A stretch of DNA of 50,933 nucleotides, taken from a virus. Shown piece after piece: positions 27,001 to 30,000 of this stretch. Location of the stretch: IMG/VR virus record IMGVR_UViG_3300045988_150450, positions 1 through 50,933 of that record; one strand, 5' to 3'. The stretch's first letter is position 1. Each line of letters opens with the position of its first letter. Position numbers: made by a program.

Positions 27001-30000
27001 TACTCCGAGAAGTAAAAAGTTCACTCTAAAAATCCGCAGGCGGGAGGCCGTAGAATCGCGGCCAGATCTTTGTAAAGCCCTTTCGCGGGTAAACGAAAAT
27101 AGGCGGGATCTTGTAAAAAATAGGCGAAAAATAGGCGGGATTTCCGTTTCTCCACTTGTAAATACCAAGGGTTTTACCTGCGCGGGTAAAAGAAAATAGG
27201 TAAAAAAGGCTTGGTATTTACAAGTGCGTCCTTGAACCTATTTTTATCTCCTTACTTTTATATATAATAATTTTTACTTTATTATATTAAAGTTTTATTT
27301 TTACTATATTTATATTCCTCTCGTATAATAAATAAAATAAAAATAGGTTCAAGGAGTCCTTTGTAAATCTTGGGACTTTTTTACCTATTTTTAATTACTC
27401 CCACGAGTAAAATGCCTGTAATCTTGTATGAAAATTTCGATTTTACGCCTATTTTTAACCTATTTTTACCCAAGATTCCGCCTATTTTTAATTACTCCGA
27501 AAGCCCTAATCTCGTTCGAAAACTTTATCTTATTAAAGTTTTTCTCTGATCGAGTAGGGGACCATAAAAATAGGTTCAAGAAGCCTTTGTAAAATGCCTT
27601 GTAATCCCAAGACTATTTTTAATTACTCCCACGAGTAAAACTGTTGTAAAATTCAAAGAGAGACCTGCAATTTCCGCCTATTTTTATACCTATTTTTAAG
27701 ATCTTGAACTTCAAGCAATTCCTTGATTCATATTGAACCTATTTTTAGGGATTATGTAAGAAAAATTTTGTAAATTTCTTTAATTTTGTGAATTTTCTCA
27801 GTTTTACTGTAAAATCTTTATTTTCTACCAACAGATACCCCCATTTTGCTGGAGTTTGCTTCACATTCCAGTACTTTTCACAACAAAACCGTGACTTTAC
27901 TTTTTCATTTCTAAGTAGTAGAATATGATTGTAAGGTAAATGAAGCTGATATTTCTTAGGAGGACATAAAAATGACTGGTGAAATCAGAACCACTTCCGT
28001 TGAAGGAACCGAGTACCATGTGTGGAGCGACTTTTGCGCTCGCTGCACTTACGCTGAGAACTCCGATGGAGTTAAGAAAATCATCAAGAGCAGTGGTTAC
28101 ATCCACAACGACCTGTCCGTGAGAAAAGCAATCGCTTGTGCATTTGGTCACAAGAGCTTCAGAAAGTGAGGATACAACAATGAAAAAGGTTTATGATGAT
28201 CAGTTCCGTATGCTTCCCAGCGAGATCAAGAAGGTTGAGCGCCTTGCTAACAAGCTGTCCGTCCGCACTGATGCCAAGGTTACTGCATACTCCTCTCGTC
28301 CGGATCCTTTGTCTGAAGACGTTGTCATCTGCAGCTGTGAGATCTGCTACAACTATGAAGACGTCGCTGATTTCTCTGTGAAGCTGTTCGCATTTCTGCC
28401 CGACCGTCGTAGAAGCTGGGCTCACTGATAGTCCAGCATACCTTAATTATAATAGGAGGATTCACCCATGTCCAACATTCGTTATCTCATCAAAGTAACT
28501 GCCACAGCCCAGCCCAACAATCCCACCTTTGCAGGAGCTGTTCTCACCTACTACTATGGCCGCAATCAGACTCTAGTGGGTATACACTCTGAAGGGATCA
28601 TGCCTCCTGAGGAGATGGAACTTTCTTCCTGGCTAGTCAAAGAATACGGATACAAGACTCGTAACACCAAGAGAGCAGAACAGTTTTGGTCTTCCGACGT
28701 CGATGACAGATACTTCATTGATCCGGATGGTTCTGATTTCTGGACTTACAAGACTGAGACCGTTTCCTATGATCTCGAAACCAATTCGTTGGTAAACAAC
28801 ATTGCTTAACAATTTTGAAAGGAGATACCCAAATGAGATACCCTAAAAACGCAATTCAAAAGATCCTGGAGCAGTTTCATGACAGCGAGCGTGATGTACT
28901 CAGAGTTCCCTATTCTGTTCCAGATCAGTACTCCACAAAAAACTCAGCTCAAGGTGTTTGGAGAACAGCAATCAAGACTTCTGGGTACAAGATGAAGTGC
29001 ATCACAATTGATAGCGTGCTGTACATTATCAAGCTGGATCCAGATCATCAGAAAACTGCTATCAAGTTGTGTTCAAACTGCATGTACAGCCTGGAGGATG
29101 GATTTTACAATCCTGATGGTTGGACTTGTAAGGACTGTGTAAAAGCTAGTAAATGGAGGGCAAAATAATGAAAGCATACAAATGTGATCGATGTGGTAGT
29201 CTGTATGAGAGCTATACTAAAATTGTGCTTGATGAGCGCCCCAAAGAGCATGTAACTTTCTCTGCAACCAGTCTGGTTCTGCGCAATTCAGATTTGATGC
29301 CTGTTGGATCCTATGATCTTTGTCCGAACTGTATGAGAAAAGTATTGACTATGCTGAGGGGGAACAAAGAATGAAAACACTGTCAATTGGATTGGGGAAC
29401 TTCGTGCAGGAGGCGAGAGTGATAGCAATTATATCACCCGAGTCTGCACCTGTAAAGCGCATGGTCAGAGACGCAAAAGACAAAGGTCTAGTAGTGGATT
29501 CTACCTATGGCAGACCTACAAGAGCGGTTATTGTAATGGACAACGGATCAATCGTGCTGTCAGCTATCCAGCCTGAGACCATCATAAACCGTAACAACAA
29601 GGAGGTGACAACGAATGAATGAACGTATGACTCCATGCTGCTCTGACAGAATAGATCTTGTAACTACAGTTAGATGCAAAGACTGTGTAAACTGGTCAGG
29701 CAAACAGACTGATAATGTGGGTGTATGCCGCAGCTTCTCAGCTGGCACAAAGGCTATGGACTTCTGCAGTCGTGGAAGACTACAGTCTAACAGAAAGGAA
29801 GATTAAGTTGGTTACTGCAAGAGTTTACCTCAAGACTGGTGGATACGTTGATGTTGAGGCTGATATTGTTAAATGTAAACGCAACAACGCTACTGGAGAA
29901 CTTGTGTCTTTTTCTTGTGAGGGAACTGCCACTGGACCTGAATCAAGTAGCAGCTGTGGTACAGGCTATGATAGAGGTGATGATGACTGTGACAAGGAAA

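Follow-up and report, generated by a model that had tools for sequence, protein, structure and literature searches.

A RemA-family protein kept as a core gene in a lineage of uncultivated siphoviruses: a putative architectural DNA-binding factor

Although many other bacteria carry RemA, it is, to our knowledge, understood solely as an activator of biofilm formation in Bacillus. Here we describe a RemA-family gene at positions 29371–29622 (plus strand) of IMG/VR virus record IMGVR_UViG_3300045988_150450; the whole stretch that was analyzed, positions 1–50,933 of this record (50,933 nucleotides), is referred to as the window. Sequence comparison points to something new, a phage-specific core branch of RemA whose DNA-contact motif is altered in the subclade of the window.

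The closest described relatives are RemA (YlzA) of Bacillus subtilis and RemA of Geobacillus thermodenitrificans (GtRemA). R18 bridges D59 of the next subunit in the ring, and the R18W substitution turns octamers into heptamers (Hoffmann et al., PMC8481266). P29 begins helix α1; R32, D36 and D/E39 make the back-to-back contact of the 16-mer (Hoffmann et al., PMC8481266). In GtRemA and B. subtilis RemA, R50A or R51A singly abolishes DNA binding, activation of the eps promoter (PepsA) and biofilm formation, and the octamer of the R51A/R53A mutant is structurally unchanged (PMC8481266). The initial annotation of the window described DNA wrapping by RemA as established; this wording was too strong, as the source paper proposes wrapping on the basis of a structural model and does not establish it (PMC8481266). 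Two adjacent RemA subunits superimpose on the DNA-binding domain of the LytTR type (AgrA), and SwrD forms rings that are similar to RemA but lack the arginine insertion. On bacterial chromosomes, the gene has the context yloC-remA-gmk-rpoZ (PMC8041843). Different from that arrangement, the RemA gene of the window lies between small Cys-rich open reading frames (ORFs) of a phage early unit.

Phage SPO1 encodes TF1, an architectural protein of the HU type with a preference for DNA containing hydroxymethyluracil (hmU). The fold of TF1 is unrelated to that of RemA. Phage RemA would be, like TF1, a small oligomeric DNA-bending or DNA-wrapping protein of a phage whose thymidine is modified, and the analogy is functional only. 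Truncated, receiver-less Spo0A has already been described in gut phages, and manipulation of host sporulation was proposed as its function (PMC10294663). Like these truncated Spo0A proteins and the phage-encoded sporulation sigma factors (Schwartz et al. 2023, PMC10294663), phage RemA is homologous to a developmental or biofilm regulator of Firmicutes; those genes, however, are sporadic and accessory, whereas phage RemA is core and strongly constrained. In the searched text and supplements of the same study (PMC10294663), remA is not mentioned.

The ORF at 29371–29622 starts with ATG and encodes 83 residues; a Shine-Dalgarno-like GAGGGGG (29356–29362, plus strand), as read from the sequence, lies 8 nt before the ATG. 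In a formal profile search, the Pfam RemA-like family PF04025 (DUF370) matched the product with 104.2 bits (E = 3.9e-30; cutoff 26), and positions 2–72 of the 73-position profile were covered. The NCBIfam model PRK04323 scored 109.6, above its threshold of 87; the strict RemA equivalog model NF046064 (NCBIfam) gave 113.5 bits, below its cutoff of 140. A phmmer search against the PDB identified 7BM2, the structure of GtRemA, with an E-value of 3.8e-25. The AlphaFold2 model has a predicted local distance difference test score of 82.6, with a helix predicted at residues 26–38. When compared by Foldseek with chain A of 7BM2, it gave a template modelling score (TM) of 0.80 and a root-mean-square deviation of 2.0 Å over 74 aligned residues with 55% identity; apart from RemA entries, the PDB contained no significant fold match to the model. 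The initial annotation had placed a full-length RemA homologue at exactly these coordinates, and all of the RemA motifs that it quoted were found in the product. Taken together, the profile matches and the predicted structure indicate that the ORF encodes a genuine full-length RemA-family protein with the RemA fold. Compared to the RemA proteins of B. subtilis and G. thermodenitrificans, it has the same fold and length, with identities of 49–55%; different from them, it carries Leu in place of F/Y10, which is a signature of the phage clade, and has a C-terminal tail unlike that of the B. subtilis protein. Different from the B. subtilis gene, the phage copy sits in an early unit and scores below the equivalog cutoff; activation of eps or tapA should not be assumed.

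The phage RemA is not confined to one genome. Nearly all of the best 120 metagenomic homologues belong to a single type, in which 'IGLGN' stands in place of the 'IGFGN' or 'IGYGN' of bacterial proteins, and many of them are on contigs of ~50 kb; the exact RemA protein of the window was found on 34 contigs. In every context that was inspected, including those from Logan and ENA, the genes follow the same order: TerS, a non-coding hub, small ORFs, RemA, DUF2786, HMUDK, deaminase and D5 primase. IMG/VR holds 29 RemA loci, the majority of which come from the phage lineage of the window. Among the IMG/VR relatives, RemA identity (39–96%) declines in step with that of TerL (60–98%) and of the D5 primase (68–100%). 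When IMG/VR relatives were anchored on the D5 primase instead, RemA was present in 12 of 12 informative loci (one more locus was cut too short), in a sample that is not fully independent, as the primase-anchored contigs largely overlap the RemA-anchored set. Within the subclade of the window, the ratio of nonsynonymous to synonymous substitution rates (dN/dS) of RemA is 0.015–0.13; TerL and the D5 primase have 0.02–0.04, and a neighbouring ORF 0.13–0.38. These data indicated that RemA is a core, vertically inherited gene of a ~50-kb siphovirus lineage and is under strong purifying selection. They point to RemA as an old fixture of the lineage and not a recent theft from a host, with a job in the programme of the phage itself. 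The relatives are also mosaic: between the window and L001, synonymous divergence is 0.40 in RemA and TerL, 0.055 in the primase and 0.10 in TerS.

A protein search of GenBank matched eight 'Bacteriophage sp.' records. The two that were inspected, MT835883.1 (L138) and MT835556.1 (L139), are 'UNVERIFIED' human-faecal records with bacterial-type RemA, one of which is Faecalibacterium-like (GRSTR); owing to the bacterial type of RemA and the absence of lineage genes, these records probably represent bacterial contamination of viromes. Such contamination would fit the notion that the gene of the window is a bacterial passenger, acquired lately or already in decay, or that an assembly error joined bacterial DNA to a viral contig. 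However, the window is a self-closing genome that is phage throughout, the same synteny recurs in dozens of independent assemblies, the dN/dS values are far below 1, and the gene belongs to a phage-specific clade; the chance that RemA is a passenger or an artefact is next to nil.

To place the phage proteins among bacterial ones, we scanned GTDB with one genome per species (185,579 species genomes). The single-protein scan found no prophage and no close bacterial copy of phage RemA; in the profile scan, the highest bacterial identity among the matches listed was 69%, to Veillonella parvula. The bacteria nearest to phage RemA are a mixture of Veillonella and uncultured Clostridia, and the identity differences between them are small. 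A neighbour-joining tree was built from 180 distinct core sequences, in which a single split sets all 75 bacterial RemAs apart from the phage sequences; only its coarse picture is trustworthy, because the alignment is short and bootstrap support is absent. Mean identities are 72% between phages, 77% between bacteria and 61% between phage and bacterium. On these sequence comparisons, the phage RemAs form a phage-specific clade that is nested in no host clade. The initial annotation had hoped that a phylogeny would reveal the host; with the phage lineage outside every host clade, the tree does not name one. No host was identified from the RemA tree, the nearest bacteria, the Spo0A_C homologues described below or tRNAs, and a 134-kb contig listed for a close RemA homologue had no host flanks. 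CD25890, considered as a clostridial RemA, was dropped from the comparison, being the YicC-like neighbour of remA (PMC8041843).

Most of the residues that matter in Bacillus and Geobacillus RemA are shared by the phage protein. The ring pair is kept (phage R16/D57 for R18/D59 of B. subtilis), as is the helix α1 interface of the 16-mer (phage P27, R30, D34 and D37 for P29, R32, D36 and D39). Among the DNA-binding arginines, phage R48 and R51 correspond to R50 and R53. Different from the characterized proteins, the phage protein has Pro (P49) at the position of R51 and Arg (R33) at that of Q35, and the complete set of R50, R51 and R53 is not found in it. P49 sits in the 44–51 loop of the AlphaFold2 model. 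In the following, positions are numbered as in B. subtilis RemA. The resulting GRPTR motif is monophyletic, being fixed in and confined to the subclade of the window; other members of the phage clade have GRRTR and a few have GHRTR. All P51 sequences have Arg or Lys at position 35 (30 of 30), where the usual residue is Gln; the chromosomal RemA of Faecalibacterium (GRSTR) likewise has K35. A survey of the family covered 150 representatives with 176 domains; residue 51 is Arg or Lys in 160 of these domains, Ser in 10, Pro in 3, Gln in 2 and Thr in 1. Because ~9% of the family representatives have no basic residue at 51, R51P, although a real departure from the characterized RemA proteins, is judged from these sequences to be within the natural range of the family; it may be compensated by the coupled Q35R. 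According to the initial annotation, a RemA should show significant similarity to DUF370 and keep the residues for oligomerization and DNA binding. The similarity is significant and the oligomerization residues are kept; among the DNA-binding residues, R51 has become Pro.

Could R51P turn the protein into a poison subunit, which is unable to bind DNA, joins host RemA in mixed rings and thereby inactivates the host regulator? The R51A substitution stops DNA binding and leaves the octamer undisturbed, the phage protein retains R18, D59 and the α1 interface, and P49, located in a loop, is predicted to be structurally tolerable. On the other hand, most of the phage clade has GRRTR and the gene keeps its core position in the genome, so that a change of mechanism in one subclade would be unparsimonious; wherever P51 occurs, position 35 has gained a basic residue; chromosomal RemAs with Ser, Gln, Thr or Pro at 51 exist; and the phage proteins differ from the bacterial ones at conserved positions, e.g. 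F10L. We therefore give the poison subunit very little credence.

RemA-like genes also occur in unrelated viral contigs, with 39–55% identity. In L024 the gene adjoins RusA and a terminase; L026 also encodes a C5 methylase, DUF5131 and a β-helix protein; L029 encodes PolA bearing a UDG domain; and L034, a contig of 197 kb, encodes a DnaE-type PolIII α. On these gene contents, unrelated phage types have acquired RemA-like genes independently, beside replication and recombination genes (PolIII α, PolA-UDG and RusA). A nucleotide search with window positions 27000–33000 found no match among GenBank phages; PHROGs has no family for phage RemA, and BFVD gave no fold match. The literature searched contained no paper reporting a phage RemA, and some homologues had already been named RemA automatically by the IMG pipeline. 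In the family survey, 18 of the 150 representatives (P0128–P0266) carry two to seven RemA domains per polypeptide, with seven in the 531 residues of P0128; such multi-domain polypeptides may form a covalently linked pseudo-ring.

In the window, RemA belongs to what appears to be the first rightward transcription unit (27972–31313, plus strand), which consists of small ORFs, RemA, small Cys-rich ORFs and a Spo0A_C gene; its gene order is the same in relatives. A promoter-like element, P1 (27896–27941, plus strand), lies ahead of the first rightward gene and reads TTTACT-17-TAGAAT followed by ATGATTGTAAGGTAAAT (the TTGTAAGGTAAAT box). Two P1-like copies, both on the plus strand, head the second unit (31478–31522) and the ORF at 91–1056 (50848–50893). 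All three share one design: TTTACT, 16–17 nt, TAGAAT or TATGAT, and then ATnnTTGTAAGGT. The relative of ORF 91–1056 in L004 has a weak Pfam match to Phage_SPO1_gp51. The unit ends in a strong, terminator-like hairpin (31312–31350, plus strand; free energy −25.5 kcal/mol, z −6.67) directly after the stop codon of Spo0A_C. The 'first early operon' of the initial annotation thus stands as a discrete unit with a promoter-like element and a terminal hairpin, on structural support only. RemA directly follows a 73-residue zinc-ribbon-like ORF with two CxxC pairs (29153–29374, plus strand), as had been claimed, and it overlaps both neighbours: the stop codon of the upstream ORF overlaps the RemA start (ATGA), and the start of a 63-residue Cys-rich ORF (29615–29806, plus strand) overlaps the last 8 nt of RemA. 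Pairwise BLASTP detected two weak paralogue pairs in the unit, 29153–29374/30724–30915 (E = 2e-5) and 29615–29806/30200–30376 (E = 3e-5).

The last gene of the unit (30912–31313, plus strand; 133 residues) encodes the effector domain of Spo0A only, without a receiver domain (Pfam Spo0A_C, 66 bits; PDB entry 1LQ1, E = 2e-14); its 'VER.IR' recognition helix is intact. Among 5.8 billion proteins only seven homologues were found, none of which is evidently bacterial. The 0A box TGTCGAA occurs twice in the whole genome (~6 expected) and is absent from the hub. In the lineage, the gene is patchy, being present in 8 of the 21 genomes spanning the region; in L135–L137 it overlaps RemA directly.

This arrangement bears on a second explanation, of which the initial annotation had offered a form, in which phage RemA is a host-directed mimic: the ring would bind host upstream regions of the RemA type or AT-rich host DNA, and thereby alter matrix or developmental transcription. 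During takeover, host transcription could be activated, blocked or scrambled by RemA, perhaps in concert with the Spo0A effector domain from the same unit. The company that RemA keeps in the first rightward unit, small Cys-rich proteins and a receiver-less Spo0A, is in favour of such a role, as are the direct overlap of the two genes in some relatives, the manipulation of host sporulation proposed for truncated phage Spo0A (PMC10294663), and the retention of the ring residues and most of the DNA-binding residues. The set of thymidine-hypermodification genes in the genome would even offer a source of selectivity, as hypermodified phage thymidines could exclude RemA from phage DNA and leave it on host DNA only. 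However, RemA is core and vertically inherited, unlike the patchy Spo0A_C; there is no close bacterial donor, with identities of at most 69% among the matches listed; and the RemA-like genes of other phages adjoin replication genes. The two features by which a mimic of a host regulator is recognized, sporadic spread and close likeness to a host gene, are not seen in phage RemA. We consider the mimic somewhat less probable than the architectural reading set out below, but a serious competitor to it.

The rest of the genome confirms the phage setting that had been assumed. The first 42 nt of the window (1–42) are identical to its last 42 nt (50892–50933); owing to these identical ends, the assembly is taken to be closed (circular or circularly permuted), and the genome of ~50.9 kb to be complete. 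Its GC content is 42.5%. Siphovirus genes encode a major capsid protein, SPP1-type portal and Dit proteins, TerL, a GP3-type TerS and tail proteins. No integrase was seen in the window, no tRNAs were found in it, and an Rfam search of it gave no match. The rightward arm encodes a D5-type primase, PolA, an SNF2 helicase, a PD-(D/E)XK nuclease, AAA_24 and DUF669. In the structural module, the minus strand encodes a BspA-type leucine-rich-repeat protein with a PKD domain (19920–21215). Between TerS and TerL, insertions of homing-endonuclease or Bro-N genes vary among relatives (L001, L132, L133, L135 and L140).

The thymidine-hypermodification set (33340–35787, 35965–36447, 45312–46894 and 47392–48186, all on the plus strand) comprises 3D, a thymidylate-synthase-like enzyme, TAGT, a dCMP deaminase, the amino-acid:DNA transferase ADDT and two 5-hydroxymethyldeoxyuridine DNA kinase proteins, HMUDK_hel and HMUDK_HMUD1. 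From this gene content, the phage DNA probably contains modified thymidine. A more speculative proposal, which we regard as rather unlikely, is that the RemA ring is a modification-aware DNA wrapper, being either a chromatin-like protein of the phage for its hypermodified DNA or excluded from that DNA and so selective for the host.

The hub (26905–27971) is a non-coding region between the leftward packaging and structural genes and the rightward early unit, and contains no convincing ORF. As stated in the initial annotation, it is rich in repeats: CCTATTTTT occurs 12 times in the genome, with all copies inside 27116–27746, against 0.5 expected, and the repeats are conserved across relatives. 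The 14 copies of the consensus, TAAAAATAGG(C/T)(G/T), surround an AT-rich core near 27250–27335 and occur in both orientations. The AAAAATAGG repeat is kept in the hubs of distant relatives whose RemA is 49–71% identical (L028, 49%), yet L006, L133 and L135 carry AAAAAGTCG despite RemA identities of 88–94%; L016 and L017 have AAAATTAGGCG, and L031 has AAAAATCGG. The iteron thus changes type among relatives (L006, L016, L017, L023, L027, L031, L132, L133 and L135), and its A-tract is always kept. In the close clade, repeat types segregate with the 3D/HMUDK_hel/TAGT cassette (identity of HMUDK_hel 96–98% versus 49–52%) and not with RemA; L132 has a cassette of the window type and both repeat types.

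RemA might be the specific reader or wrapper of this hub, acting through the TAAAAATAGG iterons; organization of the hub by RemA was the other option offered in the initial annotation. The repeats are strongly non-random and restricted to the hub, hub and RemA are both conserved through the lineage, and an A-tract occurs in every repeat variant while RemA sites are AT-rich. But the exchange of AAAAAGTCG and AAAAATAGG between close and distant RemA relatives runs the wrong way for a reader, and because repeat type does not co-vary with RemA, RemA is not the reader of the specific (variable) half of the repeat. The spacing does not fit either: A-tract phasing at 10–11.5 bp is nowhere above the genome background in the hub, there is no 10–11 bp periodicity, and the repeats are single or doublet, whereas PepsA has runs of at least six at 10-bp spacing. 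Inverted copies around an AT-rich core would be just as compatible with an origin or a packaging site. It is thus improbable that RemA reads the hub specifically; RemA may bind non-specifically to the A-tracts that the repeats have in common.

Taken together, the observations are best accommodated, with a probability of roughly 0.4, by phage RemA being a putative early DNA-wrapping architectural factor that serves the programme of the phage itself. This architectural reading is favoured because the gene is core and strongly constrained, unlike the patchy Spo0A_C, and because unrelated phages independently acquired RemA-like genes near replication genes; a core, constrained and early-placed gene is what is expected of phage architectural DNA-binding proteins, and phage RemA is such a gene. 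Early in infection, the first rightward promoter would drive expression of RemA, and the protein would assemble into octameric rings, possibly paired as 16-mers. The outer surface of the ring would bind AT-rich DNA with low sequence specificity, despite R51P, and would shape, for example, promoter-upstream or origin-proximal DNA; its main target would be the DNA of the phage and not that of the host. Parallels would be the modelled wrapping by RemA of the DNA upstream of PepsA and the use of the histone-like TF1 by SPO1 on hmU-DNA.

Several points weigh against the architectural reading. In lytic phages, the first operon typically contains genes for taking over the host, and a Spo0A effector domain is encoded in the same unit as RemA. 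In the subclade of the window, R51P affects a residue that is essential for DNA binding in the characterized proteins, and the family-wide coupling that might offset it is modest: of the 16 domains whose residue 51 is not basic, 5 have a basic residue at 35, compared to 16 of the 160 in which residue 51 is Arg or Lys. The sampling through the D5 primase overlaps that through RemA, as described above, the type of hub repeat goes with the hypermodification cassette and not with RemA, and the hub shows no A-tract phasing.

A RemA branch that has long been kept as a core gene of widespread uncultivated phages suggests that the ring is useful beyond biofilm control. The lineage provides a compact system for asking what a RemA ring does to DNA, with natural variants at binding-critical residues (Arg, Pro or His at positions 50/51) and DNA predicted to contain modified thymidine. 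It also refines the view of host regulators carried by phages, as within one operon Spo0A_C behaves as an accessory gene and RemA as a core gene. If the ring were indeed modification-aware, it would be part of the discrimination between self and non-self DNA during takeover, and the R51P/Q35R combination in the subclade of the window would be a retuned DNA-contact surface.

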